IMG/VR virus record: IMGVR_UViG_3300016457_000036
Span: 71,253-120,543 of that record
Reading direction: 5' to 3' (one strand)
DNA length: 49,291 nt
DNA from: a virus
Lineage: Duplodnaviria > Heunggongvirae > Uroviricota > Caudoviricetes
The translations under genes were made by a program, and so were the position numbers. Positions 1-37,523 of this stretch are shown piece by piece. The notes under the pieces are model-generated. The model was not told the DNA's origin. It did not search any database and worked only from the letters and a program-made list of their open reading frames with translations. The first letter of the stretch is position 1; the number at the start of each line of letters is the position of its first letter.

Positions 1-3000
1 TATTCATAGGATCATCACCGTGTATCTTATTCATAATAGAATCAACAGGACTGAAATATCCTTTTAGAGGTGTATCTAGCCAATCAATGCCAAGTGCTTC
101 TCTAGTTGCTAAAAATAGACCTACACCTAGTGGATTTTTCTTAACGAATGTACCCATAGCAGACAGAGATCTTTCTAAGTATTTCGTAAACATAAGGAAG
201 CCGTTATCATTCGCCCACTTGATCCATTTATTATCGAGGTATGAATAGTTAACAAACATCTTATCTGTCTCACGAAGATCTACACCACCTTCTAGTAGCA
301 TCACACGGTTAGCAATATCGTTCAACTGTGTAAGCTTAACAAGCTTCTGATATGCCCATGACTTATTAGTAAGGAATAAGACATCTGTTACATTTTTAGT
401 GCCTTTAGGGAGCTTAGTAAATAGCTTATCTAACTGTGACGTAATAAGACCATCATCCTTATAAATATCAAAGTCAATATCCTCTAGGATAGAACTGTAC
501 TGCCCATCTTTAAATAGTGAATATGCTCTATTATCTTCTAACTCTCTTTTTAATGAGTCGATGCGATCTTGTGTCACATCTTCCCCCGCTTTTTGAGCTA
601 TTTCTAAACGAATAATCTCACGATTAGTCGCTTGGAAATCGTTTAATGCTTCCCATATACCTGTAAATTCTTTCATATATTTAAGTGGATTAGGCTGTCG
701 TAAACGGATCATAGTTACAATCATGTTCGATACTGTATTATTTTTAATCGTACTGAACATCTTAGTAACAATACTCTTTTTAGCTAGTCCTACAAGCTCT
801 GCCCACCCTTTACCAAGTATCTGTACAGTACGCTTAATACGAGGGCTGCTTTCAAAGATACCGAAATCAGTAACACTTGCATCTTTATATCCTGTAAAAT
901 CTACGAGTAAACTATTTGGAATAGCTATCGAAGCTTTACCTGTCATACGTTCTATTTCTTTACGCGCATAGTCAGGTATGATATTCCACTTATCAGCATA
1001 CTCGTACTCTTTACCTTTTAGACGCTCATTAGGATTAGTTGCACGTAATATCGTAAATTTATCCTCGTTACCGGCATAATTATTTTCAGCATACGCGATC
1101 ATATTATGTACAGAATTGATATTACTACGTATCGCTTCTTCTTTATGTGACAGGTTAGCTGATGTATTTGCAATAACGTGAGCAAGGTTATCATTAAGCC
1201 CTAAGTGTGCTTCTTGATCAGCATAACTAACCTTGATACGATAATCCTTTATCTCACCCGTTATACTTCGCTCAGGAGTCATAAAATTCTCTTCTGCGAC
1301 TATTGCATCGTACTTAGGCTTTTCTTTTGCCATACGTGTCATAACATCAACTATCTCTATCTGATCAAGACCTGCTTCAAAAAGTACGCGTCTAAATGAC
1401 ATACCCTCTGCACGGATCTGTACAGTATTGATAAGACCTTGAGTATATGCTGTTTCTAAATCTGTACCGGCCACTAGAACGTATTCTTCTCCGGTAGCTT
1501 CTTCAAGCGCTGTCAGTAAGCCTGATTTTTTATCCGCATTAATGACCTTCATACCACTTTTTTCTAACTGTACTAACTCTGACTTCTTAACGATATGCTG
1601 TACTTGAGCGGTATCTTTATGTTTAACATGAAAACCTTTTTCCTCTAAAATAGCTTGTGGTCCGACAAATACTTGATCACGCATAGTCTTACGGTCTGCA
1701 TAATACACATTCATACTATTTTGAATAACTCCTACATTTTTAGCGATGGCAGCTATAGTGTTCGTCCTATCTTCTAAACCTGTCTGAGTAAGAGCATATA
1801 AACTAGCTATTTTATCAATATCTGCTACAGCATCTTGTGTTTTGTAGTGCCGCTGAATTTCAGTAGCATTAATGAAACCATTTTTATCGGTATCTACTCC
1901 TGTAACAAGCTTCATGCCTAAACGCTTAGCCGCTAATACAACTTCTTTATCCATGCCTTTCGACAGCTTTTTAATCTCATTAAACGCTAAACTAGTATCC
2001 TCTAACATAGGTACTAAATCTTTAACATTTTTAGTAATAGAAGCATAGTCAATATTCAACAGAGCTTTTTTAAGTGACTGTACAATACTTTCATCGAGTT
2101 TATTTGTCTTAGGATCTTTTGCCATAAAAATACTAAGGCCTTCGTGATTATGCATATCACCTAATAACTTAACAACAGCCTCATGCTTTAATGTTTGAGT
2201 AGCTGAATCCACCTCATACTTAGACTGTCTGAACATGTCATAGAACCATGCTATCTCAGGATCGGCTGTATCACGTAATACTGCTGTAAAAATGTTATTT
2301 CTAATCAGCGTTTGCTTAATACCCATAGTAAGTTTTGAATCTGTAACTCTATCTACCCATGCTGAAAGAGAGTCTGTTTTTTCATTTACAAGAGAGACTT
2401 TACCACTATTTCTAACTTTCTTCTTTTTGCCTTCGGTCATTAGTTTCATAGCATTTACAGTCATCTCATCAGCTTTGTCATAGATCTTCTTAAACTTCCC
2501 ACTAGGCTCAGCAGGGAGTGAACTATTCTTTGAAGCTTGCGCAGATACTTGAAAGAGTTGCATTACAATATCATTCACAGCTTCTTTACCACTTTTATTG
2601 TCTGTCACAGCCGTTGTTACAATTTTATTGAATACTTCGATCATACGATTAACAAAATCTTTTAGTGAATAGCCTAAAGTCTTTTTAGTTCTTCCACGTG
2701 CATTTGTTGTTTTTTCGTTTTCAAATAATCCAAATGTATCATCCTTCTGCTTAACATTTTCAAGCATCTCTTGCATGTACATATTAGTAGATGCATACGC
2801 TAAGAACTCACTCTCAGGGTATGTAGGATTATGGAATACATACTCATAAAGCTTTTTAGCATATTCAACTTCATGACTTGTTGGAGTAGCTTTATCTGTT
2901 AAGAACATCTCATAAGGACGTTTACCGGCCTCTTTAGCTTCTTTACGAGCTTGTCTCTCTAACTTAGTAAGCTCTGCTTTCGTAAGTGGTCTACCCACCT

Positions 3001-5563
3001 TAGCTACTTCTGCTGTCTGCAATTCCGCATAGATAGTGTTAAGCTTAGCTTTCTCAATATATGCAGGAATTTGAGCCGCTGCTGTCTTACGTAATTTACG
3101 TATTTTAGTCTTCATCTTAGGATCAGCCGCAAGTGCTTTTTCGATCATAATGTGCTGTACTTCGTGTAAGAATAATTCTAATGGAGTAGAGAACGTCTGA
3201 TTACCTGTAAGATCGATACGAATATGTCTTGAGTTAAGCTCTGAATCTGCCTTAATAAAGGTATCTTCCCGCTTATTACTAGCATCTAAATAATCTTGCA
3301 TAGTCATCTGATCGGCTGTAATACCTAAATCTTTATACATTTTTATAATGTTTTTCGCCATTGTTTTAAGATGTTCACGATTAGTCTCATACGTTCCCGT
3401 TAAAGCGCCCTTCTCTTCGTGGTCTAACATCTCTTGGACAATATCAAGTAGTGAAGAGTCTAGTGAAAATGTAGCAGGATCTTCGTTGTACTTGATGTTC
3501 TCATCATAGTCACCTGTTTGAGCTTGCTGTGAACCACGTATAGAGTTATCGAACTTAGCTGTATACTTGCCATTGACTACATTTACAGTAGCTTCTGATA
3601 CTTCTCCATCTGTGACCTCTTTAACTGCATCAGGATTAGCTTTAGCATGTGCACCGGTCATAAATGGCTTAATACCATTGTCCTTATTCACATACTTAGT
3701 AATGTGGAAAGGTGTACCTGATGGTTGCTCTGTGAGTACTGTACCATCGGATAGTGTAACCTCTACTACATCGTATTCCATGTCGCTATCTTTGTATGTA
3801 CCGACCACTTTAACGCTAACTGTATCACCTTCTGTACCTGGTATCAATGGCCCATCGCTGAACTTACCTTCAGGCTTGAAGTTATAAGTGATATGTAGTC
3901 CATTATCGAGCTTGAACTCAGAGAACAATTTAATAGGGGCACCTTCTTGTAATGAACCACGTACATCAGCATTTTGAATAGCTGTTACAATATTTTTACG
4001 CTGTGTTTTATTTTTATCAGCCCATACTTCTTTACCTGATTTTTTACTATACAACACGTCATTCTCAGCATCATAGGCATACTCACCTTTGCCGTATACA
4101 ACACTTGGTAACGCATTAAGATTTACAGTAGTATCTACTTTAATAGCAGGTGAGTGTACAGGCGCAGGTCCGGCCATTTCTACAGCAGCATCAAGAGCTT
4201 CTCCGCCTTGCTCAGCAACAGGAGGGTTACTATACTGTCCATTTCCTACTACATAGTTAGTTGTATCAACAGTAGGCTCTGCAGTATCGTTTACAGTAGT
4301 TTCTTGAGGTTTCTCTACAACTGCTTCAACAATAGGAGCCTGTTCTTCATTACGATTTTTAATGAAATCACGAAGAACTTTTGCATGTGTCAGCTCTTTT
4401 TCCTCTTTGAAATAGATGATCTTCTTACCATCTAACTGACCTGCATTAATCGTTTCTAGTATCCACTCTCTACGAGCAGGTTCTACATCTTGATGTGCAG
4501 TACCTTCTAACCACTCTTTAAACATAACACTAACTTCTTCACCTGTACCCATAGCAGGTTGTGAAGCGCCTGTATTAAGCCCTGTGACACCAAACGGATT
4601 GCCATAGTGATAATCAGGGTTAAGTGTGTTATTAAACATTTCTGCGTCGAATACACGCATACCAAATACACCTGCACCAATATTATGAGCATTGGCTCTC
4701 TTCTGCTTAGCTTCTGCTGATTTACCCGGTATTACTAAGATGCCATCGCTATTACGCATTTCATCTGTGATCACATCTGTACTTCTTGCAATTTTACCGA
4801 ACTGAGCCTCGAACATATCACTAATCGCTTTTTTACCTGTATCAGTAATATTTCGAGAGCCTATACCCGCATAATTTTTAGTTAGGGTAGGTGATCCTTC
4901 TTTAATAGGCTTCCATGTGCTAGTCTTGTAGTTCCACTCATACCATTGATTAGTTTGACCATCGTCAAAAATGTAGATAGGTTTACCCGCATCTTTTCCC
5001 ATTTCAATAGCATATGCTGTTCCACCTGAGCCTGTATCTTCTGTTACTTGACTAGTATCACCAGGAGTATTAAAACGTCGAGCTGATTCACCTTTACGTG
5101 TAATAGGAGTAACTGCAAAAATTGCATCTGCATATTTTACTTGTGACCAATTACGAATGATAAGGCTATTTGTGACTGTACCTGTAGGAGTTGTGAGGCC
5201 TGAACGTCTTGCTGCTGCTGTAGCTTTAGACGCGCCTTCTCTGTAATCTGAACGAGTAATAGGTGTGTTTGCATTAGGAGGCTGTGACTCAAGATCTTGG
5301 TTAGTATCGTAATAGTGATTACTACGGAAACCAAATAAGGCTGCTATCTCTCCGAATACTGTATCGGCACCGATCGCTCCCCCACTCTGATTAACGAACT
5401 CTTTACCATCGCTACGATTATTCACCGCTGCTTGGTTTTGTTCTCTAACTATAGTAACATCTTTAAGCGCATCATCGAGCCATTGCTCATTATACACTTG
5501 ACCACTTTTTTCAATGTCCGAGAGAATACTCGCTCTTATCTTACCTAAGTCACATACAGCCAT
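1..5563 (-). CDS. vRNAP second subunit (3'-truncated by window edge, >=1854 aa): SLOG + DUF4326-like + 2H phosphoesterase + zincin + N4 vRNAP C-terminal domain
   Basis: Hand translation from ATG 5563 (AAGGA RBS; MAVCDLGKIRAS...) is open to base 2. Contains HEVQH...EFLAYASTN, IDKIASLYAL, FTGYKDASV, KLPKGTKNV and FVNYSYLDNKWIKWANDNGFLMFTKY, which resemble the C-terminal third of N4 gp50. Not in the ORF track because no stop lies inside the window. Confidence 0.9.
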   Translation of the reverse strand, partial: MAVCDLGKIRASILSDIEKSGQVYNEQWLDDALKDVTIVREQNQAAVNNRSDGKEFVNQSGGAIGADTVFGEIAALFGFRSNHYYDTNQDLESQPPNANTPITRSDYREGASKATAAARRSGLTTPTGTVTNSLIIRNWSQVKYADAIFAVTPITRKGESARRFNTPGDTSQVTEDTGSGGTAYAIEMGKDAGKPIYIFDDGQTNQWYEWNYKTSTWKPIKEGSPTLTKNYAGIGSRNITDTGKKAISDMFEAQFGKIARSTDVITDEMRNSDGILVIPGKSAEAKQKRANAHNIGAGVFGMRVFDAEMFNNTLNPDYHYGNPFGVTGLNTGASQPAMGTGEEVSVMFKEWLEGTAHQDVEPARREWILETINAGQLDGKKIIYFKEEKELTHAKVLRDFIKNRNEEQAPIVEAVVEKPQETTVNDTAEPTVDTTNYVVGNGQYSNPPVAEQGGEALDAAVEMAGPAPVHSPAIKVDTTVNLNALPSVVYGKGEYAYDAENDVLYSKKSGKEVWADKNKTQRKNIVTAIQNADVRGSLQEGAPIKLFSEFKLDNGLHITYNFKPEGKFSDGPLIPGTEGDTVSVKVVGTYKDSDMEYDVVEVTLSDGTVLTEQPSGTPFHITKYVNKDNGIKPFMTGAHAKANPDAVKEVTDGEVSEATVNVVNGKYTAKFDNSIRGSQQAQTGDYDENIKYNEDPATFSLDSSLLDIVQEMLDHEEKGALTGTYETNREHLKTMAKNIIKMYKDLGITADQMTMQDYLDASNKREDTFIKADSELNSRHIRIDLTGNQTFSTPLELFLHEVQHIMIEKALAADPKMKTKIRKLRKTAAAQIPAYIEKAKLNTIYAELQTAEVAKVGRPLTKAELTKLERQARKEAKEAGKRPYEMFLTDKATPTSHEVEYAKKLYEYVFHNPTYPESEFLAYASTNMYMQEMLENVKQKDDTFGLFENEKTTNARGRTKKTLGYSLKDFVNRMIEVFNKIVTTAVTDNKSGKEAVNDIVMQLFQVSAQASKNSSLPAEPSGKFKKIYDKADEMTVNAMKLMTEGKKKKVRNSGKVSLVNEKTDSLSAWVDRVTDSKLTMGIKQTLIRNNIFTAVLRDTADPEIAWFYDMFRQSKYEVDSATQTLKHEAVVKLLGDMHNHEGLSIFMAKDPKTNKLDESIVQSLKKALLNIDYASITKNVKDLVPMLEDTSLAFNEIKKLSKGMDKEVVLAAKRLGMKLVTGVDTDKNGFINATEIQRHYKTQDAVADIDKIASLYALTQTGLEDRTNTIAAIAKNVGVIQNSMNVYYADRKTMRDQVFVGPQAILEEKGFHVKHKDTAQVQHIVKKSELVQLEKSGMKVINADKKSGLLTALEEATGEEYVLVAGTDLETAYTQGLINTVQIRAEGMSFRRVLFEAGLDQIEIVDVMTRMAKEKPKYDAIVAEENFMTPERSITGEIKDYRIKVSYADQEAHLGLNDNLAHVIANTSANLSHKEEAIRSNINSVHNMIAYAENNYAGNEDKFTILRATNPNERLKGKEYEYADKWNIIPDYARKEIERMTGKASIAIPNSLLVDFTGYKDASVTDFGIFESSPRIKRTVQILGKGWAELVGLAKKSIVTKMFSTIKNNTVSNMIVTMIRLRQPNPLKYMKEFTGIWEALNDFQATNREIIRLEIAQKAGEDVTQDRIDSLKRELEDNRAYSLFKDGQYSSILEDIDFDIYKDDGLITSQLDKLFTKLPKGTKNVTDVLFLTNKSWAYQKLVKLTQLNDIANRVMLLEGGVDLRETDKMFVNYSYLDNKWIKWANDNGFLMFTKYLERSLSAMGTFVKKNPLGVGLFLATREALGIDWLDTPLKGYFSPVDSIMNKIHGDDPMN

Positions 5564-5572
5564 TACAGTCCT

Positions 5573-8500
5573 TTAACACGCATCATTCATGTAGTCTACT
5601 AATTGATCTTGGTAAGCAGTTACCTGTTCTTTAGAGAGATATTTATCTAAAGCTTTATTAATATGCACCACAGCATCATCTTCGGTTATTATATTGTACT
5701 CTATGTTAGCATCTGCTAAGTTCTTAGTGTTTTCAATAATCGTTGTAAGCACTTCTTTAATCTTGCTGTATACATACTTAGTATTCTTTTTAGTATCTTT
5801 TCCTACCCGGACACTAGGTACTGTATCGATCCCTTGTAAGTGGTTTACATCATACTCTTTATTCAAGTTTTCGCTACGCTGTTCATCCATTTCAGTAAGT
5901 ATGCTAAATACTTCATTTATGTCGAAATCTTTATTGATCCGTGATAGACCATCTGATAATTGCTGTGTAAGATTTTGCTCCGCTAAAAACTTTTTAAAGT
6001 CTTTTAATTCTCCATTAGCAATAAGCTCAGAAAGGCTATTCTCTGTTTTAGCTACAGCATTTCCCATAATATCATGAGTACGAGCTGTGTGCAGCACTCC
6101 TCCGTTATATTCACCGTGTGTTTTTACGATTTTATCCATATTAACACCCATGATGTATGCATCATAAATATTCTGAAAAGAGGCACTATCTGAGATACTC
6201 ATAAGGAACGCATCGATCTCGTGAATGTCAATAACACCATTAGCACCAATATTCATGCCTGGTACTTTGTTGTATGATGCCCCACTCTTACCTACACGAT
6301 TTTTAAATGGAATGGCACCGTCACGAAGAGCACCATCTACACCTACATAGTCTCCGGCTTCGTTGTCATACTTCATGTAGTCTTGATTAGCACCTTCATT
6401 AATACTCTGTGAAGTGTACCCATAACCTTGCTCACTTAGCTTTACAAGGATCTTGTTGAAGTCTTCTTTACTAATCTGTACAGTATCCGTACCGGCTTCT
6501 GCTTTGTACTTTTCTAATTCTTGTTTAAGCTTGTACTTAAAAACTGTAAAGTTTACTATCTCAACACTTTTTAGAGCCTCTCTAAATCTATTCAAGAAAG
6601 GGAAAGCCTTATTAAAAGCTTTTTCAATAATATCCCCATATGCATTAGATGTCTGCTTAGCGATACTCGCTTGCATCTCTTGAGATAGTACGAGATTATT
6701 TACAGTATGCATTATACGACCGTCTTCAGGCATCTCATCTTTAGTGCTATAGAAGTCAGTACCGCTCTTGTATGCTTTATACTCAATACCTTGTGCTAGT
6801 TGAGCATATAGATCCTCTAGTGATGGCGTAGTAGTGTTTGCAAACAAGTTTGTATACAGTCTATTGAACTCCTGCCCTTCAGTAGCTTCAGCATATTGTG
6901 AGTTATATGAACGAAGAATAGTAGTGAGCAAAATCTTTGCTTTTTCTCTTTCTACTTTCTGCTCTGCTGTCTCTCCTTGAGGCGCAGAACGCTCTTTCCC
7001 TTGTCCTCTAAAGTTAGGATAGGCTACCATGAATAAATCATGCATAGCCATACCTTTATACTGTCCTAAAGCATTACTGACTGTTTCTACACCGATAGTA
7101 ATACCGGCATTTTTCTTAATTGTGTTGATACTCGCACCATAGATGTAGTACATAACTAAGTACTTCATCAGATTACGCCAATTTTTATCTTTACCTTTAA
7201 TAACAAAAGCTTCTACTAGCTTCTCAATATTAGTTTTACCGTCATAACCATCTCCCGCTTTTTTAGCGTTTCTAATTGCAAGCTCTTCTGCAACGATTTC
7301 AGCAGGAGTACGATAAATATCAATTCCACCTTCATCTAAAAATTGTTGATGAGTTTTAAACTCACTATTTCCTTCACTATCCACAACATAGATACCACCT
7401 TTTTTAAGGTAGTCCATCGCTTCATTTGTACCAATTTGTAATAGTGTTAAGATCATACCTGATGTAACTGCATCCATCTCAATAACAAGACTGTGATCAA
7501 AAGCTTTACCTTCTGCACTCTCGAACTGTGCTAGAGCCGCTACGAGCTGATAAGCATGGAAACGCTCATTTGTCGGCAGGAAGCTGAGATCGATCTCTGT
7601 GCCTTCTTTATAAGCTTCTACGACAGGTTTAATAGGACTGTTCTCAGGATAAGTCACAGTACCATCATTCTCAAGCTTAAAGTATTTTTCTTCTAGCTCT
7701 TTAAATACACTTTCTGAAGTCTCTTTATCGATACCTAGACCTAGTGACTGAGAAGCTGCACCTTTAAACATAGTGATGTGATCAGCATCGTAGCCTTTAC
7801 CATCTTTAGCGACAGGCATTGTACTTTTCATATCTTCCATCTCAACAATAAAACGAGTGATCTTACTATTCTGTGGGTTCATCATCTGATTTTCTATCAT
7901 ATAACGACCTGACACAGTAACGTCCCACGCTAAGTAGAACGGAAGTGTGTCGCCATTCGGCTGATTTACTAACTGATACGTAGTGATCATGTTGTCAATA
8001 ATAAGCTTATTGGCTGCATTATTTTTTACGTCCGTTGCCTGCTTTAAATATGGCTTATTAAGTATCTGCTCTTCACTAACAAGGAGCATGTCATAAAACA
8101 CATCATTGATAGTGATATGATCCTTAGCCTCTGTATTCTTGTTGTTATACTCTACTCGCTCTTTTACTTCTGCAAAAAGTTTCTCGAACTCTGCTGTAAA
8201 TTTACGTGGTAGTTTTTGTTGGGCATTGATATAATCAACTTGGTTTTCTCCGGCAACTTCTATAGACTGTCCACGATAAGTCTTCTTACCATACTCTAAG
8301 TCAGCAGGAGGATCTAACTGTACTTGTGTTCTATCACCATCAATACCTAAATATTCATACGCAGAAGACACTTCAGTAATCAGTTGCACAGTCTTGTCGT
8401 TAAGGTTAGTATTCATTATTCTGAAATGTTTCCCATTTGCAGGCGCATCATCACGTACAGTTTGTACAATTTTACCATCGGCACTAGAATCAGAAATAGT

Positions 8501-11500
8501 TATTGTGTCTCCACTATTAAACGTAGTAGACTCTCTGCCTTCTTGGTGCGTACTATTTTTAACAGCTTCTATAACCATTAATCCTAGTGCTGTAGTAATA
8601 CTATCGGCTAATTTAGCATCCACATTACCTAGAATACTTAATCTCAAAGAACGAAGCACATTTTTACCGGCACTTTGTACGAAAGCTGACTCAGGTACTT
8701 TACCTTCAGTAAGCATATTAGAAAGCTCTGTATATGCAGCATCACTTGGATCTACTCCAAATACATCTGAGATATATCTTTCTCTCTCATCACCTTTTTT
8801 AACACTTACTTCTGCCATACTCCGCATAGTCTGTAGCATTTCTAATTTAATAGCATCTTGAATTTCAGTAGCTATGCCATCAGTAACACGCACACCACCC
8901 TTATTCATCAACTTACTAAGAAGTGCTATTGGATTAGGGAAATATTTCTGTGTCTTATTGCCATCCTTATCTGTCTCATACAGGTCAAATTCAGTCTCTT
9001 TACCATCTGCATCACGTTCTACATACTTAACAGTTACTACGCCTGTAGCCGCATTAGTTTCTACAATAGGGTATACGTTACCGATAACATCTGTATGGTC
9101 TGCAGTAACTCCCACAAGCATACGCTGATCTGTTTTAATCTCAGTATTTTGCATGATAGCATTACCTTTTTGTAAGGCTGCCATGAACGCTAATTTTTCT
9201 TCAGTTGTTCCATTTATAAAGATACGCTCTTTAATACCTTTAGGTAGTAGTGCAAGTATCTGATCTTGATTTACAAGATTACCATTTGCATCTGCTTCTG
9301 TCATCAAATCATTAATAGTCACATCGAGATCGAGAATACTTAATTTACTAGTGTCTTTATTCACTTTCAATAGGTCTGTTATATGGTTCTTTACCATCTT
9401 AACGAACGCAGCTATTTTAGAAGGATCTTTAAAGAGAGGCTTACCATCTGCTTTTTTACCTGCTTGAGCATTATCTTCGATAGCTTTGGCCATCAACTGA
9501 CTACCTGCAAGATCTTTATCCAATTCAGCCTCTAGTTGACGTTTAGTAGTCTTTAACTGCTGTGCACGTTCTAAAACAGCGAGTTCTGTAGTACGTACTA
9601 AAATACGCTTAATAACTTTTTCGATAATCGCATCTTGTTCCGCAATAGCCTTTAGTAATCTCTCATTCACTTTATCTATACGCTTCTGACGCTCTTCTCT
9701 ATTATAAGCATCTTGAGGCAGATCAATATTTGTATCGCGTATCTGCTGAAGTTCGTTAAGTTTATCTGCAGTAGTTTGAAGTACACGCTGATCATTAATC
9801 ATATTAGCAGTATGTTGTTTTATCTGCTTACTAATACCCTCAAAACTTGTTACTCTTTTACGTAATCCGATCAGCTCAGTAACTAGTTGTCTCCACTCTT
9901 TACTGTGCATGAACTTATTGACAAAAGGTTTTAAGCGATTTTCGCTTCCTCTTTGCTGATTATCCGTTCCATCTGTGTCTTGTTCTTGACCAACATCTTC
10001 TGTGCTCTCTGTAGTTTCTTTTGTGTCTGATCGAGTTTCTTCTGTACTTGTGACATCTTCTTGCTCCTGTGCTTTCTGCTCTTCATCATAAAGACGTTCT
10101 AACTCAAGTATATCTTCTACTGAGTACGACTCTTCAACTGCTTTGTCTGTCTTAAATACCTCATCTGTACCGGTAGTATCATCTTCACTGACTTCATTGT
10201 TAGCACGACTTGCTGCCTGTGCCGCCTCTGCCTGTGGATTAGGTTTACGACGATACTTATACTCTGTAGAAGGACGATTATCTGTCATCTCAGCGTACAT
10301 CTCATCGATACGAGTAATTACTTTTTGACTTGCTTTAGTTCCGGCTTTAAGTAGAGCATTTTCTAAAGTTACGCCGTCTGACCATTTACGAATAAACTCA
10401 GCAGGACCTTTCTTAAATGCGCCAATACGTGCTACTAAAGCTTGTACTTTTTCTTTGGTGGTAGTTACTTGTACTGTAGGAGTATCTGAAGCTGTAGGCT
10501 CTACATTAGCAGTAGTTTCAATAGTTCCTACATCTTCTGTAAGAGTAGTTTCTACCGGGATCTCAGTAGTTTCTACTGTCTCTTCATTTACAGGCTCGGT
10601 TTCTTCTACTATCTCTTCCTCAATATCTTCAGCTACTTCGGGCTCAGCTTCAGGAATAGGATGATTAGCATAGCCTTTAGCATAGCCTGCTTCATAGGCA
10701 TCTACAAGCTTAGTAGAGTTTGCCCCATCCATAACTTTCAGATCTTCTAACATTGCATCAGAGGTGGCTTCTGCTTCCGCTAAATCTGTATTTAATTGAT
10801 CCATATCAGGATTAGAAGTATCACGCATCTCAGCTATTATGCCTGATACACTATTACCATGATCAAAACCTCTAGTATTCGCTTCGTCTTCTGTCATGGT
10901 CGCAGGTGTTTCAGTATCTACGACAGGTGCTTCAGTAGACTCTTCTGTAATCAACTCATTATCATCAAAAGGATTAGCAGGTCTTTCAACTCCGCTTTTA
11001 CCCATATCAACACCATTCATAAAGTTTACATCACTACCTATCGCTGTGCTAGAGAAACGAGACAACATACTATCAATCTCTTGTTGTACGCCATCGAGTT
11101 CTATAAGAGCTTCTTGCCGTGCTTCAGGACTAGTATTAGGATCATTTATCTCATCACTCAAAGCTTTGTGTTCTTTACCTAAAGAGTATCCTATATCGTT
11201 AATTTCTTCAGGGATCATATTTAAGTCGCCTGACGTATTTTCATTTGCTCTGTGGGCTTTTTGCTTATCTTTAATCTCTTGAGTATTTTCATCGAGATTA
11301 AGTAGCATAGCTTGTAACTCTGTAGTAGTATCTTGTGCCGCTTTAGAACCACGCTTACTAATAGGCGCTAACATTTCAGTCTTAATAATATCTGCAATAC
11401 GCTCATTATTTTCAATGATAGTACTCATGTGTCTATCTAGCTGATAGTAACTCAATGGTACGGATTTGCCTTGTGCTTCATCCCATACTTCAGTCTTAGC

Positions 11501-14137
11501 TGTTTTTCCAATATTACGTGTCTGAAGAAACGAGTCTAGCTCTGTAAGAGGTTGTTTAGTGCTTTTACCTGTAAGCGCGGCATCAACAATACCTTGTGTA
11601 TGTTCCTTCATAGATAAGCGTCTTCTACCTAAAAACGAGAAACCTGTTTCAAAAATCTCTTTTTCTACTTGGTGAGAATTTTTATTCTTACCTACATCGT
11701 CAAGTCTTACTTCTAACTCTTGAGCTCTTTGTTGGAAATAAGCAAGATCTTCAGGAGTGTACACATCAGTATTATTACCTACAGAGCCCATACGTTGTAT
11801 TACAGCTAGTGCTTTTGCTTTAGCCGAAGTGGATAGACCTTGAATGGCATTACTATCGTCTTCATTTCTAGCCATTTGAGCAAGCTCAGGTCCTAGTGTA
11901 TCTGACAATCTACGTTCATGTAGAGTAATGAGCATATCAAGAACTTTTTGACGATTAATACCTTCTAATCCATCTAAAGCTCTTTCATATGTCTCTTCTA
12001 CTACATCCATAGTTGGAGCTGCATCTTCACCATTTCTAATACGCTCTATAGCTCTGTCATTCAACTTACTAAGTACACCGGCAGTAATCACTCCCATTGC
12101 TTCTTCATCATTAGGGTCAATTTTATTGATACGTGCAATTTTTTGTACGTTCATCTGAAGGTAGTCACGAACAGTATTCTGACCTTGTTCGTATACACCT
12201 GACTCAAGGAAACGCTTAGGATCTGCAAGCTTATTAGTAGTCTCTTCTATAATAGCATTTGTAGCAGCCCCTTGTGCCTCAACAGTATCGAATGTGTCGA
12301 AGATGCCCTCTTCTTCATCAAGAGTCATATCGGCTATTTCTATCACAGCAGAAGGACTGTACTTAGTACGATCACCCTTAACTCTTGTATCTTCTGAATT
12401 AAAAGTATCTTTTCCTAGTCCATACACTTGACCAGGTGCGCCCATGTGAACACCACCTGCGGCACCGGCTAACGTAGCACCTAGCACTTCATCAATGTTC
12501 TCTTGATTTGTAAGAATAGCGGCTAATCCGCCCGGATGTTTTTCAGTACCTAACTGCTCTGAAAGGATCTGTCCCCAATTCTGAGTAAATTCCTGAGCGG
12601 CTTCTGTCGCACCGGCAGCACTAAGACCTGCAGCTGTTTCACCTATCTTAGCTAAGAAGCGTTTCTTACCTATAAGTGTAGATGAACTGAACGCATCTTG
12701 AAGCATACGTTTACCACCATCTAAGCCGGTGATTTTTCCGAACGCAATACGATCAAGACCTAACTCTAAAACCTTCTCAGCAGTAACAGCCATGATCTCT
12801 ACCATTGTAGGTTCTTTGCCGTTATTGTTGATCTTACGTTCTTCTAATGAGTTGTTAGCTTGCTCACCTACGACTGTAAGGAAACCTGCATTACTTAGAA
12901 CCTTATGACGTAAGTTATCAGCAATACCCATACCACTAGCAATCTTTTTATCAATTTTCTCAGCACGTACTATGTTACCCGCTGCTCTTGCTTCAGTTGC
13001 ACGTGAAGCTAGTTTTCCTATTTTAGTAAACTTACCAAAACCTACAAGCATCTCAGCCATCATACCTAGTGACTCAGCAGTGATCTCAGGGTTCTTTAAT
13101 ACCTCTGTGATAGCAGATACATAGTTACCTTGTTTCCAATAGCCTGTAGCCTCTCCTAGCGTCTTGGTGGCATTAACACGATTATACCCCACCCACTTAT
13201 CGATGTTCTCTTGCTTTTTAGCATTATCTAGCCAATCGTTATTACCACCTGGTGTTAGAACATCAAGAACGAAGTCAGCAGAACTTACTCCTGCTTTAGC
13301 AAAACCTGACTGAGCTGCATCAATAACATTGTACTGACCACCATTATAGTTAGCATCGTTTGCATCACTGAGCATTTGAGAAAATGCTTGATTATTTGCT
13401 ATCTGCTCAGGTGTTGCATTTTTATTAAAGAATTGAGTATTGTATATCTCTGTGTAGCCCTTATCTAACTGTGCAGTATCTCTGATACTTTCACCGGCAG
13501 TATTAAAACCTGAGTCGTAAGTACGATCAGCTAAGTTGGCCTTATTACCATGCCACTTATTTTCCCAATCCTCCGCACCTGCGAAACCTTTTTCAGAAAG
13601 GATCTCATAGCCATCTCTAATATATTGATCTTTGTAGCGAGCTGCAGCACTTACAGGAGAGATACCTGTCTTGTAAGTATAAAGAGGATTACCTGCTTCA
13701 TCATAGCCATCATTGAGTCTGAGTTGGTACACTTTAAAACGTGCGTTAGGATCATCTTCAGCAGCATTGTATTGATTAATAAGTTCCTGTCGATGAACAA
13801 GACTTTGTTCCATAGTAGTATCAGAGTCTTCAAAGATCTTATTAGTCATACCGACTTCTTGACCTTCTACATTAGCTGTAAAATCTTTACCGCCCCATAA
13901 GTTATTTACAGTATTCCATGTAGATTTAGCTGCAAGTGTAAGATCTGAGTCACTACCGGCTTGATCGTGCTTAGCAGATAGACGTGCTTTTTTACGTTCT
14001 GCTATTTCATCAAGTGTAAGGTTTTCTTGTAGCATTGGTGCTGTCTTAGCTTCTGTAGCTGCTATAAAAGCATCAATATTATTTTCATTGCTAAAATCTG
14101 TAGGAGTAAATGAGTATGGATCGTATTTTTCAGCCAT
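5573..14137 (-). CDS. Virion-encapsidated RNA polymerase (N4 gp50-like), N-terminal and polymerase domains, 2854 aa
   Basis: T7/N4-type motifs: SGRYMIENQMMNPQNSKITR, motif A IEMDAVTSG (~7460-7483), motif B RNLMKYLVMYYIYG (Rx3Kx7YG, ~7136-7177), motif C QNIYDAY (~6155-6172); size and position match N4 vRNAP. Confidence 0.92.
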   Translation of the reverse strand: MAEKYDPYSFTPTDFSNENNIDAFIAATEAKTAPMLQENLTLDEIAERKKARLSAKHDQAGSDSDLTLAAKSTWNTVNNLWGGKDFTANVEGQEVGMTNKIFEDSDTTMEQSLVHRQELINQYNAAEDDPNARFKVYQLRLNDGYDEAGNPLYTYKTGISPVSAAARYKDQYIRDGYEILSEKGFAGAEDWENKWHGNKANLADRTYDSGFNTAGESIRDTAQLDKGYTEIYNTQFFNKNATPEQIANNQAFSQMLSDANDANYNGGQYNVIDAAQSGFAKAGVSSADFVLDVLTPGGNNDWLDNAKKQENIDKWVGYNRVNATKTLGEATGYWKQGNYVSAITEVLKNPEITAESLGMMAEMLVGFGKFTKIGKLASRATEARAAGNIVRAEKIDKKIASGMGIADNLRHKVLSNAGFLTVVGEQANNSLEERKINNNGKEPTMVEIMAVTAEKVLELGLDRIAFGKITGLDGGKRMLQDAFSSSTLIGKKRFLAKIGETAAGLSAAGATEAAQEFTQNWGQILSEQLGTEKHPGGLAAILTNQENIDEVLGATLAGAAGGVHMGAPGQVYGLGKDTFNSEDTRVKGDRTKYSPSAVIEIADMTLDEEEGIFDTFDTVEAQGAATNAIIEETTNKLADPKRFLESGVYEQGQNTVRDYLQMNVQKIARINKIDPNDEEAMGVITAGVLSKLNDRAIERIRNGEDAAPTMDVVEETYERALDGLEGINRQKVLDMLITLHERRLSDTLGPELAQMARNEDDSNAIQGLSTSAKAKALAVIQRMGSVGNNTDVYTPEDLAYFQQRAQELEVRLDDVGKNKNSHQVEKEIFETGFSFLGRRRLSMKEHTQGIVDAALTGKSTKQPLTELDSFLQTRNIGKTAKTEVWDEAQGKSVPLSYYQLDRHMSTIIENNERIADIIKTEMLAPISKRGSKAAQDTTTELQAMLLNLDENTQEIKDKQKAHRANENTSGDLNMIPEEINDIGYSLGKEHKALSDEINDPNTSPEARQEALIELDGVQQEIDSMLSRFSSTAIGSDVNFMNGVDMGKSGVERPANPFDDNELITEESTEAPVVDTETPATMTEDEANTRGFDHGNSVSGIIAEMRDTSNPDMDQLNTDLAEAEATSDAMLEDLKVMDGANSTKLVDAYEAGYAKGYANHPIPEAEPEVAEDIEEEIVEETEPVNEETVETTEIPVETTLTEDVGTIETTANVEPTASDTPTVQVTTTKEKVQALVARIGAFKKGPAEFIRKWSDGVTLENALLKAGTKASQKVITRIDEMYAEMTDNRPSTEYKYRRKPNPQAEAAQAASRANNEVSEDDTTGTDEVFKTDKAVEESYSVEDILELERLYDEEQKAQEQEDVTSTEETRSDTKETTESTEDVGQEQDTDGTDNQQRGSENRLKPFVNKFMHSKEWRQLVTELIGLRKRVTSFEGISKQIKQHTANMINDQRVLQTTADKLNELQQIRDTNIDLPQDAYNREERQKRIDKVNERLLKAIAEQDAIIEKVIKRILVRTTELAVLERAQQLKTTKRQLEAELDKDLAGSQLMAKAIEDNAQAGKKADGKPLFKDPSKIAAFVKMVKNHITDLLKVNKDTSKLSILDLDVTINDLMTEADANGNLVNQDQILALLPKGIKERIFINGTTEEKLAFMAALQKGNAIMQNTEIKTDQRMLVGVTADHTDVIGNVYPIVETNAATGVVTVKYVERDADGKETEFDLYETDKDGNKTQKYFPNPIALLSKLMNKGGVRVTDGIATEIQDAIKLEMLQTMRSMAEVSVKKGDERERYISDVFGVDPSDAAYTELSNMLTEGKVPESAFVQSAGKNVLRSLRLSILGNVDAKLADSITTALGLMVIEAVKNSTHQEGRESTTFNSGDTITISDSSADGKIVQTVRDDAPANGKHFRIMNTNLNDKTVQLITEVSSAYEYLGIDGDRTQVQLDPPADLEYGKKTYRGQSIEVAGENQVDYINAQQKLPRKFTAEFEKLFAEVKERVEYNNKNTEAKDHITINDVFYDMLLVSEEQILNKPYLKQATDVKNNAANKLIIDNMITTYQLVNQPNGDTLPFYLAWDVTVSGRYMIENQMMNPQNSKITRFIVEMEDMKSTMPVAKDGKGYDADHITMFKGAASQSLGLGIDKETSESVFKELEEKYFKLENDGTVTYPENSPIKPVVEAYKEGTEIDLSFLPTNERFHAYQLVAALAQFESAEGKAFDHSLVIEMDAVTSGMILTLLQIGTNEAMDYLKKGGIYVVDSEGNSEFKTHQQFLDEGGIDIYRTPAEIVAEELAIRNAKKAGDGYDGKTNIEKLVEAFVIKGKDKNWRNLMKYLVMYYIYGASINTIKKNAGITIGVETVSNALGQYKGMAMHDLFMVAYPNFRGQGKERSAPQGETAEQKVEREKAKILLTTILRSYNSQYAEATEGQEFNRLYTNLFANTTTPSLEDLYAQLAQGIEYKAYKSGTDFYSTKDEMPEDGRIMHTVNNLVLSQEMQASIAKQTSNAYGDIIEKAFNKAFPFLNRFREALKSVEIVNFTVFKYKLKQELEKYKAEAGTDTVQISKEDFNKILVKLSEQGYGYTSQSINEGANQDYMKYDNEAGDYVGVDGALRDGAIPFKNRVGKSGASYNKVPGMNIGANGVIDIHEIDAFLMSISDSASFQNIYDAYIMGVNMDKIVKTHGEYNGGVLHTARTHDIMGNAVAKTENSLSELIANGELKDFKKFLAEQNLTQQLSDGLSRINKDFDINEVFSILTEMDEQRSENLNKEYDVNHLQGIDTVPSVRVGKDTKKNTKYVYSKIKEVLTTIIENTKNLADANIEYNIITEDDAVVHINKALDKYLSKEQVTAYQDQLVDYMNDAC

Positions 14138-14164
14138 GTGTAAACCCTCTTTGTTATTGGGTTT

Positions 14165-14172
14165 ATTATAGC
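14165..14172 (-). promoter_or_regulatory. Candidate sigma70 -10 box (GCTATAAT) upstream of vRNAP gene
   Basis: TATAAT in the 53-nt intergenic gap, about 28 nt before ATG 14137; no TTGACA at -35. Confidence 0.5.
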
Positions 14173-14190
14173 TGAAGCAGGCTTAGAAAA

Positions 14191-16035
14191 TTAGTCCCAT
14201 TGTCCTGCATTTTTTCTAGCCTGTATTTCAGCTTTAATTTGTTTTATTTTAAGACTGTTCTCTTCTATATTTTCTTTTTTCTTCAAAGAACTTTTAAGAA
14301 CTGCAAGTTCTTTTTCTAATTGTCCTTTTTGCATTACTTTAACTTGATCTGCTGTCGCTTTTAAACGAGCATTAGTTGTTGCTTCTGCCTTAGCCTGAAG
14401 CACATTATTTGCTATCACATTAGCTGCTTGTGCTGCTTTAACTTGTTCTGTAGTAGATGTAGGATCTGACATTACATTAGAAACATAAGTGTTGTTACGT
14501 GCTATCAACTCTTGATTTGTCATAGGACGTTCTTCACCTGCTACTAAGTAGTTATCGGTATATTCAGGATTATTCTCTACTGTACTATAAAGAGCATCTT
14601 GTTCATCTGTCTGCTGCTTAGTGAAAGCTTTTTCTTTATTTCTATAGTCTTTAATATGGGCTTTTACTGCAGTATCGGTAGTTGCTTGTTTAGTAGCTTC
14701 TGCTTTAACTCTATCCATCTCTTTCTGAGCTTTTTCTAGTTTAACTTTATCTGAGTCTCCCGGAGAAAAAAGGTAATCAAGCACTTTTCCAACTAAACTA
14801 AGTTGTTTAGTGCGTTCTTCTATAGGAGTGTTACGTCTTTTAAGACCTTCATCATATCCCGTAACAGCAGAGAGAGCTTTAATAAAACCGCTTGATGCTG
14901 CTTTATCATCGGCATTATTTATTTTGTACTGCAAAGCTAACTCTTCATCAGTTTTAGGTGTGTCATAACCGGCTGCTGTTTTCTCTCTTTTCTGCTTAGC
15001 TTGTAAAGAAGTAAACTTTCCTACTATCGCTGTTTGCTGTGCAGGATTAAGTTCACGAAAACGTTTTTCCTGTGTATCCGCACCTTTAGTAGTACTCTTT
15101 TGCTGAGTAAGACTAAACTGAGCGTCAGCAAGTTCGGAAGCTGCTTTCTCTTTAGTCTGTATACGTTTCTCTTGAATATTCCATCTACGAGTAAGCTCTT
15201 TCTGCTGTTCGATAGTTTTATTCAGCATTGTCTGACGATATGTAGCAGTACGCGCTTCTCTTGCAACATCGTTTTTATCTTTTAGTTCATCACGTGTACG
15301 TTTATACTCACGTGCTTCTTTAGTCTCTTGCTTATCTTCTATACGATTAGCAGCAGTTAGTTTTATACCTGCTTTATAGCGATCATCGAGTAATTGATTA
15401 CGAGTATCTTCACGTGCATATTGAGAGATCTTCTCTTGTGTTTTAGCATCTCCACCGGAAATCGCTTTAGCACGTAAAGCAGTTGCTTCTGCGTCACGCT
15501 GTGCAATAAGAGGAGTAGCCTCTGCTGCAGCTTGACCTGCTCGTTTTTGTATCCATTGAGATTGCTCTAAAACTACACGTTCATCTTCAGTAGGCTTTAC
15601 ATTAAACTCTCTATTAAGTTTAGTAGTTTCCGCTATGAAGTTATCACGTTCTGCTCCGGGCTTCATACCTGTAGCCGACTCTGTAGCACTTTTTAAAGCA
15701 GTAGCATCTAAACGCTTTTCAATATTAAAAGCATCATCTATGATTTCAGAAGCTTTTGGTGTTAGACCTACTGTACCGGTCTTATCAATAGTGGATGTAC
15801 CATCTTTATACTCAGTAGAAATATCTTCTTTACCATAATCAGGATCTAATGAAGCACGTAAAGCTTCGGCATTAGCCTTATCTTGATCTTTTTTCTCTAC
15901 GTTTTGAATACCTGATTGTACTATAGAAGCAAGATCTCTTCCACCTCTAGCAATAATTTCAGCTACACCACTTTTAATAGGCCGAGGAGCCGGTGCTAGA
16001 TTTATTTGTTGGTATGGATTTCCGTACTTAGCCAT
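14191..16035 (-). CDS. Internal virion/ejection protein (N4 gp51 position), 614 aa
   Basis: Directly upstream of vRNAP; Ala/Lys/Gln-rich coiled-coil; no Cys. Assignment mainly by synteny. Confidence 0.65.
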   Translation of the reverse strand: MAKYGNPYQQINLAPAPRPIKSGVAEIIARGGRDLASIVQSGIQNVEKKDQDKANAEALRASLDPDYGKEDISTEYKDGTSTIDKTGTVGLTPKASEIIDDAFNIEKRLDATALKSATESATGMKPGAERDNFIAETTKLNREFNVKPTEDERVVLEQSQWIQKRAGQAAAEATPLIAQRDAEATALRAKAISGGDAKTQEKISQYAREDTRNQLLDDRYKAGIKLTAANRIEDKQETKEAREYKRTRDELKDKNDVAREARTATYRQTMLNKTIEQQKELTRRWNIQEKRIQTKEKAASELADAQFSLTQQKSTTKGADTQEKRFRELNPAQQTAIVGKFTSLQAKQKREKTAAGYDTPKTDEELALQYKINNADDKAASSGFIKALSAVTGYDEGLKRRNTPIEERTKQLSLVGKVLDYLFSPGDSDKVKLEKAQKEMDRVKAEATKQATTDTAVKAHIKDYRNKEKAFTKQQTDEQDALYSTVENNPEYTDNYLVAGEERPMTNQELIARNNTYVSNVMSDPTSTTEQVKAAQAANVIANNVLQAKAEATTNARLKATADQVKVMQKGQLEKELAVLKSSLKKKENIEENSLKIKQIKAEIQARKNAGQWD

Positions 16036-16048
16036 GACTTATCCTTTA

Positions 16049-16333
16049 TTACCCGAAGGCTTGTCCGTTTTGCCCTGTTGAGGCCCAACTTTTTTGATCT
16101 GCTACTTGTCGATTATCTACAGCAATATTTGTAGTGCCTGTATTTGTAGTGCCTGTATTTTTAGCGTTTAATCCTGCAAGAATAGCCTGTGCAGAAGCAC
16201 CTAAACCTTTAAATGCTTTTGTTGTTCTATTGAATGAAGTAGCATATGTGTTATCTTTTTTAGTTGTTGCAGCAGAACGTGCAAAGTCAAAATTATAAGG
16301 CGATACTATTTGTGGCTCATTCTGAGAAGTCAT
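16049..16333 (-). CDS. Small Cys-free hypothetical protein, possible ejection protein, 94 aa
   Basis: TAATG stop/start overlap with the upstream gene; contains a 15-nt tandem duplication (16126-16155) encoding NTGTT twice. Confidence 0.6.
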   Translation of the reverse strand: MTSQNEPQIVSPYNFDFARSAATTKKDNTYATSFNRTTKAFKGLGASAQAILAGLNAKNTGTTNTGTTNIAVDNRQVADQKSWASTGQNGQAFG

Positions 16334-17103
16334 TACTGTTCCTGTGTAGCAGTATTGTTTTGCTTAGCTGCACGTGCACGTTGAGATGCTAGTAATGCAG
16401 CTTTTTTACGTGCATCTGAGGTTGCTGTCATTTCAGCATTGTCAGCTGAAGCACTAGGAGTATTAATTGGACCACCTAAGCCTCCGCCTGATGTTAGCGT
16501 AGTTTCTGTAAGTCCTGTACGAGAGCCTGCGTCTCTTCCTGTAGACTCTTTCATAAGATAGTCAGTAAAATTAGAACCTACTGCATCTCTAGCAATTCCG
16601 ATAGTATTTACACTACCTGGTAGATCGTTTTCAGCGGCATATACAGATGGAGCACGTGAAGTACCTCCTCCACTAAAGTCATTTGCAGCGAGGACTGCCG
16701 GAGTTTCAATTCCTGTCATAGGATTAGTATACGCAGGACTAGCACTACCTCCACCTATCTGATAATCAGACGCAGTGAGAGTACTGTAATCACCTGTACC
16801 TTGTGTTTCTGTACGAGCACGTTCTCTAGCTGCGTCAAGTGCATCATAGTACTCTTGACTATCACGATCTAAAGTAGGATCTATCTGTCCTCTATACCGA
16901 GCTGTTTTACCACCTGTGATAGCGGCTAATCCGGCAAGACGGTTTTGATTCATGTTAAATTGAGCTATTTTAAGACCTGTGTCTTTATTCCACATTTCTT
17001 TTTGCTGTTTTCTAGCTGCTTCAGCTTCTTTTTGTGCCGTATACGCAGCATATGCTGTCGAAATACCGCTAATAGCTCCACCTACTCCTGCTCCAATACC
17101 CAT
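16333..17103 (-). CDS. Ejection/pilot protein (N4 gp52-like), 256 aa
   Basis: Gly/Ala-rich amphipathic N-terminus MGIGAGVGGAISGISTAYAAY followed by a helical QKEAEAARKQQKEMW segment, typical of podovirus ejection proteins; no Cys; lies between gp53-like and gp51-like genes. Confidence 0.6.
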   Translation of the reverse strand: MGIGAGVGGAISGISTAYAAYTAQKEAEAARKQQKEMWNKDTGLKIAQFNMNQNRLAGLAAITGGKTARYRGQIDPTLDRDSQEYYDALDAARERARTETQGTGDYSTLTASDYQIGGGSASPAYTNPMTGIETPAVLAANDFSGGGTSRAPSVYAAENDLPGSVNTIGIARDAVGSNFTDYLMKESTGRDAGSRTGLTETTLTSGGGLGGPINTPSASADNAEMTATSDARKKAALLASQRARAAKQNNTATQEQ

Positions 17104-17113
17104 CTCAGATCCT

Positions 17114-36600: not shown

Positions 36601-37523
36601 CCTGGTACACCTTGTGGTCCGGCAACAGTAGAGTCTGCTCCTGTGTCACCTTGTGGGCCGATAGGACCGGGTACAGTAGAGTCTGAGCCATCTGCTCCAT
36701 CAACACCTTTAGCACCTTGTTGTCCTATTTGTCCTTGCGCACCTTGAATACCATCGTTACCTTGTGGTCCTTGAATTCCTGCAGGACCTGATGGACCGGT
36801 ATTTCCTGTTTCGCCTTTAGGTCCAACAATAGGTCCTATGTTAGTCCAATTAGCAGGACCTGCTCCTAGTCCATTCGAGACGAAAGCATCGTTCTCTTTA
36901 TAATCATCAGGAATTGTTCCGCCTGTCTCATTAACAAGCCAAATATCTCCTGCTACACCTTCAGTAGTCATGATGTCATAGTAAGTATCTATCCCGACAA
37001 TAATAATACCTGCTCCTGCGTCACCGTCTTGACCATCTTCACCGTCAGGTCCTTGTGGTCCAGGGTATCCTTGAATACCTGCAACACCTTGTGATCCTTG
37101 CTGTCCTTGGTCTCCTGCAACACCTTGTACGCCATTAGAACCATCCGCTCCGTCAGTACCTGTATTACCTGTATCACCTTTAACACCACGAATACCACGC
37201 TGACCTTGTGGTCCTTCTGAGCCTACCACACCTTGAGGTCCTTGTACACCCTGTGGACCTTCAGGACCTATTGGACCGACTATACCGTCATTAGGAGTAA
37301 TATCTTGCCACATACCTGCAGTCTTTTTCCAAATACGTTCTTCTGTTCCGTATTGACTATAAAGATCACCATCTTGACCATAAGTATTATTAGGGGTTGT
37401 AGTCCCTTTGAACGCTACTTTATCTTCAACTATTGTTACTTCATCGTCAGTAGTAACACCGCCTAAGTTAATGTTAGTAGCCTCGCCACTATTTAAGTAT
37501 TCTTGTATATCTCTTGAAGCCAT
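30687..37523 (-). CDS. Long tail fibre/adhesin with collagen and phage-tail repeats, 2278 aa
   Basis: G-X-Y collagen tracts, five 50-aa NPH-VTK-QVGL repeats, multiple beta-rich modules. Confidence 0.88.
35575..36293 (-). repeat. Five tandem 150-nt (50-aa) phage tail repeats
   Basis: Unit [42 protein letters not shown]; one more copy in the 1847-aa fibre near 44770-44880. Confidence 0.9.
36475..37285 (-). repeat. Collagen-like G-X-Y repeats in two blocks separated by a globular spacer
   Basis: [10 protein letters not shown]... at ~37020-37285 and ~36475-36830. Confidence 0.92.

Follow-up and report, generated by a model that had tools for sequence, protein, structure and literature searches.

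A conserved two-gene form of the N4-type virion RNA polymerase with a cysteine at each cut end

In coliphage N4, the C-terminal domain (CTD, or C-domain) of the virion RNA polymerase (vRNAP) is needed for encapsidation. The N4 vRNAP gp50 (3500 residues; 3c2p, 11gp/9pnq) is a single chain, in which an N-terminal region, a T7-like polymerase and the C-domain follow one another with flexible linkers, and gp71 of Pseudomonas phage DEV is built in the same way; both contain zero cysteines. How such an enzyme of 3,500 residues is packed, threaded via a tail of ~35 Å and activated is an open question in N4-like phages (PMC13434306). A split vRNAP was described for AltAD45-P1 to P4, Alteromonas phages of 100-104 kb (Garcia-Heredia et al., 2013; PMC3821669). 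In these phages the adjacent ORF127 (2481 residues; N part and mini-vRNAP) and ORF126 (1404 residues; C part) encode the two polypeptides, the stop between them was verified by PCR resequencing, and bands of 270 and 175 kDa were found in the virion. Here we describe a related locus in a stretch of 49,291 nucleotides (nt), called the window, which is the last 49 kb of the 120,543-bp IMG/VR record IMGVR_UViG_3300016457_000036 (positions 71,253 to 120,543; 38.8% GC; CheckV 95% complete). Two adjacent genes of the window, A and B, encode an N4-type vRNAP. We regard it as fairly probable that this is an old two-gene N4-type vRNAP, made without read-through, the ends of which are rejoined by docking and by a probable disulfide bond between A and B.

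The locus shares with N4 gp50 and DEV gp71 the order of N-region, polymerase and C-domain and the near-absence of cysteine. The polymerase domain and the C-domain are homologous to those of N4, and the locus adjoins cysteine-free genes resembling an ejection operon. Whereas N4 and DEV have a single chain, a stop, a restart and a cysteine on each side replace the RNAP-CTD linker here (RNAP, RNA polymerase), and ~800 residues (a hairpin, a SLOG fold and unassigned parts) stand in place of N4 2124-2468, with no detectable similarity to them. An RNAP domain, a C-domain and near-absent cysteine are all found, and the single chain of ~3,500 residues is replaced by chains of 2854 and 1868 residues. 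The first-pass annotation of this DNA had taken the N4 vRNAP as a single chain; this is right for N4, but a vRNAP of two polypeptides had already been shown for AltAD45 by resequencing and SDS-PAGE, and the split layout itself is already published for AltAD45-P1 to P4 since 2013. Like AltAD45, the virus studied here, which is uncultured, appears as a large (100-120 kb) marine N4-related podovirus with adjacent genes cut just after the RNAP domain. The similarity is too low for tblastn, however. A spacer of 7 nt puts the AltAD45 genes out of frame, whereas the 9 nt found here keep the genes in frame, and gene B is 460 residues longer than its AltAD45 counterpart and carries a SLOG module. Packaging and ejection have been shown only for N4, and presence in the virion also for AltAD45.

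Gene A (5573..14137, minus strand, including the TAA; 2854 residues, 316.7 kDa) comprises the N-terminal (ejection) region and the polymerase domain, and matches N4-like vRNAPs by tblastn. Gene B (1..5563, minus strand; 1868 residues in the whole record, 208.8 kDa) runs past the window start; according to the full record, its final 14 codons and stop lie outside the window, in the 43 nt before its start. The minus-strand junction reads GAT GCG TGT TAA AGG ACT GTA ATG GCT GTA TGT, as in the first-pass annotation, and the in-frame TAA, the 9-nt gap and the separate AAGGA ribosome-binding site given there agree with the sequence and the list of open reading frames (ORFs). The codon TGT (5576..5578) encodes Cys2854, the last residue and sole cysteine of gene A, and is followed by the stop TAA (5573..5575), which lies in the same junction in the independent assembly L010. 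The 9-nt spacer AGGACTGTA (5564..5572), together with the last AA of the stop, builds the Shine-Dalgarno sequence AAGGA (5569-5573), which overlaps the stop and is located 5 nt ahead of the ATG start codon of gene B (5561-5563). The codon TGT at 5552..5554 encodes Cys4, the sole cysteine of gene B; all these elements are on the minus strand. From the stop to the start codon there are 12 nt, which keeps genes A and B in frame. The spacer AGGACTGTA is also present at 4607-4615 of L005, a relative with 47% identity, where it separates the N and RNAP pieces. At most junctions a Shine-Dalgarno sequence at the stop, or overlapping it, and a short spacer are found, and this points to translational coupling. 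Gene B is probably made via this coupling, in about the same amount as gene A.

We have little doubt that the split is genuine, conserved and without read-through. A JGI contig (L010, 118,914 bp) shows 20 differences from the window in 8563 nt (99.8% identity), and its junction is identical. The relatives that are 82, 53, 47 and 25% identical to gene B all have separate genes with the start at the same place, two of them (L003 and L005) having three pieces, and the nearest fused protein (P0049) is only 30% identical. Metagenomic assemblies may contain errors, and the NCBI record of AltAD45-P1 labels its own locus 'potential frameshift'; the stop could have arisen through faulty assembly or sequencing, or through a mutation that recently inactivated the gene, in one real ORF of 4,725 codons. 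The chance of this is negligible, because the same junction occurs in a second assembly despite 20 differences elsewhere, the split is kept in every relative with differing spacers, gene B has its own Shine-Dalgarno sequence and start, and a conserved Cys...M-x-C signature is found exactly at the two ends; the AltAD45 stop was, moreover, confirmed by resequencing (PMC3821669). The comparison with related genomes that the first-pass annotation had proposed thus gave split rather than fused relatives, and together with the second assembly it excludes both an assembly error and fused relatives. The same annotation had also proposed that read-through would give a fusion of >4,700 residues. Programmed read-through of the TAA, alone or alongside two separate products, would be helped by the frame of the two ORFs, by a 9-nt spacer free of further stops and by four more in-frame junctions in L003 and L005. 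The 82%-identical relative (L001/L002), however, has a spacer of 10 nt and is out of frame, as are the AltAD45-P1 junction (7 nt), those of L006 (49 nt) and L008 (55 nt) and both junctions of L009 (46 and 8 nt). The first L003 junction (9 nt) is in frame, yet a second in-frame TAA lies inside its spacer. In-frame junctions amount to 5 of the 11 homologous ones, where chance gives one in three (binomial p = 0.29). TAA is the main stop of the genome (TAA 65, TAG 18 and TGA 11 among 94 ORFs), the six phage tRNAs include no suppressor, and the AltAD45 virion gel shows two bands at separate sizes (PMC3821669). As several relatives are out of frame, read-through is not the mechanism, and we consider the fusion product very improbable.

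The single-subunit RNAP domain occupies residues ~1760-2854 of gene A (5576..8860, minus strand), according to invariant columns and a profile match. A HMMER search with gene A 1760-2854 over 1.84 billion representatives gave 129 relatives, and an alignment of 40 sequences shows the motif TVSGR and the invariant A-, B- and C-type residues D2222, R2321/K2325/Y2333/G2334 and D2659. The RNAP profile matches the N4 mini-vRNAP (3c2p/2po4) with E 1.4e-28, profile positions 189-924 of 1006 being aligned to residues 326-1080 of the 1117-residue chain, and it matches T7 RNAP weakly, at motif B. By tblastn, residues 1786-2368 of gene A and 857-1854 of gene B match annotated vRNAPs of Vibrio, Pseudomonas, Salmonella and other N4-like phages at 20-30% identity. 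Pfam gave no match in gene A or gene B, nor did phmmer searches of either against the PDB; only profiles reached N4. No close relatives came from blastn against the phage collection, from a peptide-pattern scan of viral contigs with gene B or from tblastn with P0059. The N4 mini-vRNAP corresponds to gp50 998-2103, and the linker 2102-2123 is flexible and invisible in the structure (PMC13434306). Since the RNAP profile reaches residue 1080 of 1117 of the mini-vRNAP with ~80 profile positions left, gene A ends about where the mini-vRNAP ends. These profile boundaries put the cut near the flexible linker that separates RNAP and CTD in N4 gp50.

The core of the N4-type C-domain was located at residues ~856-1868 of gene B (1..2998, minus strand) by PHROGs and by profile. 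Residues 856-1852 align to positions 2363-3382 of 3406 of phrog_2206 (E 5e-62), and a C-domain profile built from split-clade sequences only matches residues 2469-3453 of full-length N4 gp50 (11gp/9pnq) with E 1.5e-83. An earlier profile, in which classical N4-like sequences were also present, was discarded for circularity. No match in gene B was detectable for the first ~345 residues of the N4 C-domain, nor a counterpart in N4 gp50 for the ~800 N-terminal residues of gene B; the latter stretch varies between relatives. The division of an N4-type vRNAP at the polymerase/C-domain boundary, as first annotated, is supported by these matches, and the N4 C-domain in the downstream ORF is confirmed.

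Genes A and B together contain 2 cysteines in 4722 residues, and both are located at the junction (the last residue of A and residue 4 of B); the first-pass annotation made no use of them in its account of the split. The other ORFs of the genome contain 0.89% cysteine, so that 42 would be expected in A and B (Poisson 5e-16). The same arrangement was observed in 8 loci, at 11 of 11 junctions: a cysteine is found among the last 6 residues of the upstream piece and another at residues 3-7 of the downstream piece, position 7 being used only in a 191-residue protein of L008. In AltAD45-P1 (KF005317), the upstream protein ends with ...HCKQ (cysteine 3 residues from the end) and the downstream protein starts with MTIC, each cysteine being the sole one of its protein. 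Where there are more than two pieces, the middle ones have a cysteine at both ends, and the outer ends of the chain have none. The L003 chain consists of an N piece (...C1372), an RNAP piece (C3...C1772) and a C-domain piece (C4), and L005 shows the same arrangement. The L009 chain (1-18528) consists of an N and RNAP piece of >3300 residues with cysteine as its last residue, a SLOG-helicase protein of 1271 residues (C3...C1270) and a C-domain piece of 1567 residues (C3). In L008, the 191-residue protein (14570-15145; C7, C187) follows a cargo piece of 2214 residues with cysteines at both ends, and this chain may continue into small proteins.

The rule was examined in a wider set of 128 RNAP-bearing representatives, 108 of which end soon after the RNAP domain and 20 of which belong to the fused class. 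A terminal cysteine (last 6 residues) is present in 95 of the 108 pieces ending after the RNAP domain, and these contain 8 internal cysteines in 200,641 residues; 19 of the 20 fused-class proteins have no terminal cysteine. Among 30 C-domain proteins retrieved, 28 have a cysteine at residues 3-6, which is the sole one in 25, and the remaining two are cysteine-free fragments without a Met start. Where the N-domain is split off, 17 independent pairs could be compared; the N-terminal cysteine changes in the same direction in 9 of them and in the opposite direction in 0 (p ~0.004), and most of the eight pairs that show no difference consist of ORFs that appear truncated. When the flanks are aligned on the cysteine, a helix-like hydrophobic periodicity is observed on both sides. 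N, D or E comes after the N-terminal cysteine, and E, K, N or G before the C-terminal one. These features are consistent with terminal cysteines at helix ends. The alignment of the C-terminal tails of the RNAP pieces is too gappy to show which residue the fused relatives have at this position. The absence of cysteine in vRNAPs and other ejection proteins has already been published (PMC3821669; DEV paper, PMC11445570), and the AltAD45 paper does not remark on the cysteine positions (PMC3821669). The cysteine rule in split vRNAPs looks unpublished: a literature search that did not cover subscription journals gave no described cysteine or disulfide link.

The facing ends were submitted to complex prediction, using gene A 2559-2854 and gene B 1-280, each with its alignment, in three runs and three controls. 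The ipSAE values are 0.64, 0.64 and 0.70, against 0.00 for the best control; of 80 solved complexes 58 reach the ipSAE mark, as do 2 of 110 mismatched pairs, counts that hold approximately here, as our own alignments were used. The contacts shared between runs are at least 49%, and the pLDDT of the partner is at least 84. The predicted docking helices of gene A are residues 2804-2854 (51 residues; 1045-1095 of the segment used; 5576..5728, minus strand), and the modelled interface is formed between these residues, including the last one, and residues 3-44 and 105-129 of gene B. The best modelled pairs are A 2834-B 16, A 2842 with B 13 and B 9, and A 2846 and A 2849 with B 9. In the model the contact register is antiparallel and heads toward the two cysteines. 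Docking of the facing ends of A and B is thus supported by the prediction.

From these features we propose the following course. A and B would be produced in matched amounts from the coupled genes. The final two helices of A and the first two helices of B would form a four-helix bundle, placing Cys2854 next to Cys4, and an inter-chain disulfide would form in the virion, once the particle is outside the reducing cytoplasm. The joined ends would restore a single thread, so that the polymerase piece could be drawn into the capsid by the C-domain piece, and both would pass through the tail one after another. The reducing cytoplasm of the host would then open the disulfide and free the polymerase from the C-domain piece. 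A wider proposal, which we hold tentatively, is that the terminal cysteine is a redox-switched coupler: the separately encoded N-region, polymerase, modules such as SLOG, NADAR or helicase pieces, and C-domain would form a head-to-tail disulfide thread, packaged via the C-domain, drawn in order through the tail and cut into free enzymes by the reducing cytoplasm of the host. If so, the vRNAP locus would work as a modular string for delivery, open to the insertion of further injected cargo as extra cysteine-capped genes. In AB-type toxins, two chains are linked by a disulfide, and the protein is opened by its reduction once the membrane has been crossed. By analogy, an inter-chain disulfide would keep the delivery part and the enzymatic part joined outside the cell, and reduction in the cytoplasm would release the enzyme. 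The two differ in that there is no relation of sequence or fold, that the chains come from separate genes rather than from proteolytic nicking, that the link is end to end, and that the bond is a predicted one here.

The ends might dock while the terminal cysteines serve otherwise, by sharing a metal ion, by S-acylation or by a link to another virion component. By itself the rule demands just a thiol at each cut end, the D, N or E often found after the N-terminal cysteine is a possible metal ligand, and no oxidase was found. A link between neighbours nevertheless fits better than a modification of every piece, as cysteines are found strictly in facing pairs (none at the N-terminus of the first piece, none at the C-terminus of the last one, and one at each end of a middle piece). 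The rule holds in >100 lineages. A usual zinc site would need more than a single cysteine from each side, and both cysteine-bearing ends lie in the modelled docking interface. Ketosynthase and acyl carrier protein families gave no match in this genome or in AltAD45-P1, which is uninformative on acylation. We regard such other roles as possible but unlikely. Still another account follows Garcia-Heredia et al. (2013), who take the cysteines as a sign that the protein is not injected (PMC3821669): the cysteine-bearing polymerase piece would stay out of the injected set, and the proteins would act in the infected cell or stay in the capsid. A cysteine-free sequence is indeed thought to be required for passage of the periplasm (PMC3821669; PMC11445570). 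Apart from the one terminal cysteine, however, the pieces are as cysteine-free as injected vRNAPs, and such depletion would not be expected to persist if the protein remained in the capsid throughout. In addition, the virion of AltAD45 contains both polypeptides (PMC3821669). Non-injection is accordingly judged highly unlikely.

Several points weigh against a docked and disulfide-linked vRNAP, beside the opinion of the AltAD45 authors on cysteines. Phages assemble in a reducing cytoplasm. Thioredoxin and glutaredoxin gave no match in this genome; Erv-type oxidase gave none either, but that search matched no control and is hence uninformative. Because no oxidase was found and the assembly site is reducing, oxidation would be spontaneous, inside or outside the released particle. 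The A-B disulfide is what we infer; the complex prediction comes without coordinates and gives no S-S distance, and the pLDDT of chain 1 in the complex is low (42-46). Thirteen of the 108 RNAP pieces have no terminal cysteine, most of them resembling fragments. In a FastTree phylogeny of 86 RNAP domains, the split state of the RNAP/C-domain junction changes only ~4 times, so that the association of split and cysteine at this junction rests on few independent events; an independent-pairs test there had 3-4 usable pairs, which puts significance out of reach. Finally, the AltAD45 virion gel gave separate bands, the passages available not stating whether the conditions were reducing (PMC3821669).

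The split clade is large and mostly uncultured, with at least 65 sequence clusters in the RNAP tree, and its vRNAPs consist of two to four separate proteins. It shows that chain continuity at domain linkers is dispensable for synthesis or folding, and the strictness with which cysteines occur at every cut suggests chemical restoration of this continuity for the journey. If the disulfide-linked form is true, it would represent a simple redox mechanism for the ordered co-delivery and later release of phage proteins. The present analysis corrects the published reading that cysteines mean no injection. For annotation, such loci should not carry a frameshift flag, unlike the GenBank record of AltAD45-P1 (L007 30624-42306; KF005317 90623-102305), in which the two vRNAP genes are unannotated and flagged 'potential frameshift'.

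The part of gene B preceding the C-domain begins with a predicted helical hairpin at residues 1-50 (helices 6-20 and 26-48; 5414..5563, minus strand), according to the AF2 model of B 1-440 and the complex model. It is followed by a SLOG-fold domain at residues 51-256 (4796..5413, minus strand), assigned by structural alignment and conserved motifs. The predicted model aligns by VIA-align to 3imk_A with Z 12.3 and a root-mean-square deviation of 4.2 (139 of 158 residues aligned), and the next matches are LOG, DprA, molybdenum-cofactor carrier protein (MCP) and YpsA with Z 5-6. The SLOG motifs SGGAxGxD and GGT are invariant, and the fold is Rossmann-like with a glycine-rich loop; the domain has no Pfam family match, and Foldseek on the B 1-440 model gave nothing at E <= 0.001. 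In other phages, the SLOG module is found after the RNAP domain (P0043, P0090) and also in separate cysteine-capped pieces with SF1 helicase and NADAR.

A NADAR domain (PF08719) was identified in the B proteins of relatives (L003, E 1e-20, gene at 10001-16558; L005, E 6e-22, gene at 10001-15658; L001, weak, gene at 3385-8958). It is missing from gene B here, near residue 417 (window ~4310, minus strand); the difference is a clean indel, also in comparison with the 82%-identical relative. A NADAR/DUF4326-like domain at B 260-440 had been considered and was dropped, the model residues 260-440 being of low confidence. The first-pass annotation had spoken of new N-terminal cargo gained by the second protein. 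In substance this stands. The RNAP-CTD linker region is where the variable modules have their place, and they can lie on either side of the cut. Fused vRNAPs also carry cargo (GGDEF in P0193 and a helicase in P0195), both without cysteine.

A HExxH motif is located at residues 800-804 of gene B (3152..3166, minus strand), as indicated by its position across the split-clade pieces. The motif lies 980-1075 residues from the C-terminus in nearly all split-clade C-domain pieces, while the part preceding it ranges from ~190 to 1330 residues. The sequences had all been cut 40 residues before the HExxH, which makes its alignment with classical vRNAPs trivial, and the claim is therefore limited to the constant position within the split clade. 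It may correspond to the motif that was described in DEV gp71 as a 'putative zinc-binding motif'.

In gene A, an acidic and poorly conserved linker of ~500 residues (residues ~1120-1630; 9248..10780, minus strand) was delimited by alignment to the pieces of relatives: the L003 N piece aligns to gene A 26-1119, and the RNAP piece P0039 aligns from gene A 1630. In L003 and L005 the upstream part is cut into an N piece (1372 and 1272 residues, respectively) and an RNAP piece (1772 and 1793 residues), and this second stop and restart, with its own cysteine pair, falls exactly at the acidic stretch of gene A.

The two genes directly upstream of gene A (14191-16035 and 16333-17103, minus strand; 614 and 256 residues) contain no cysteine. 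In cysteine content they resemble the gp51/gp52-type ejection proteins of Schitoviridae. Two further giant ORFs of the window (30687-37523 and 40303-45846, minus strand; 2278 and 1847 residues) contain 3 and 8 internal cysteines and no terminal one, and stand outside the cysteine rule.

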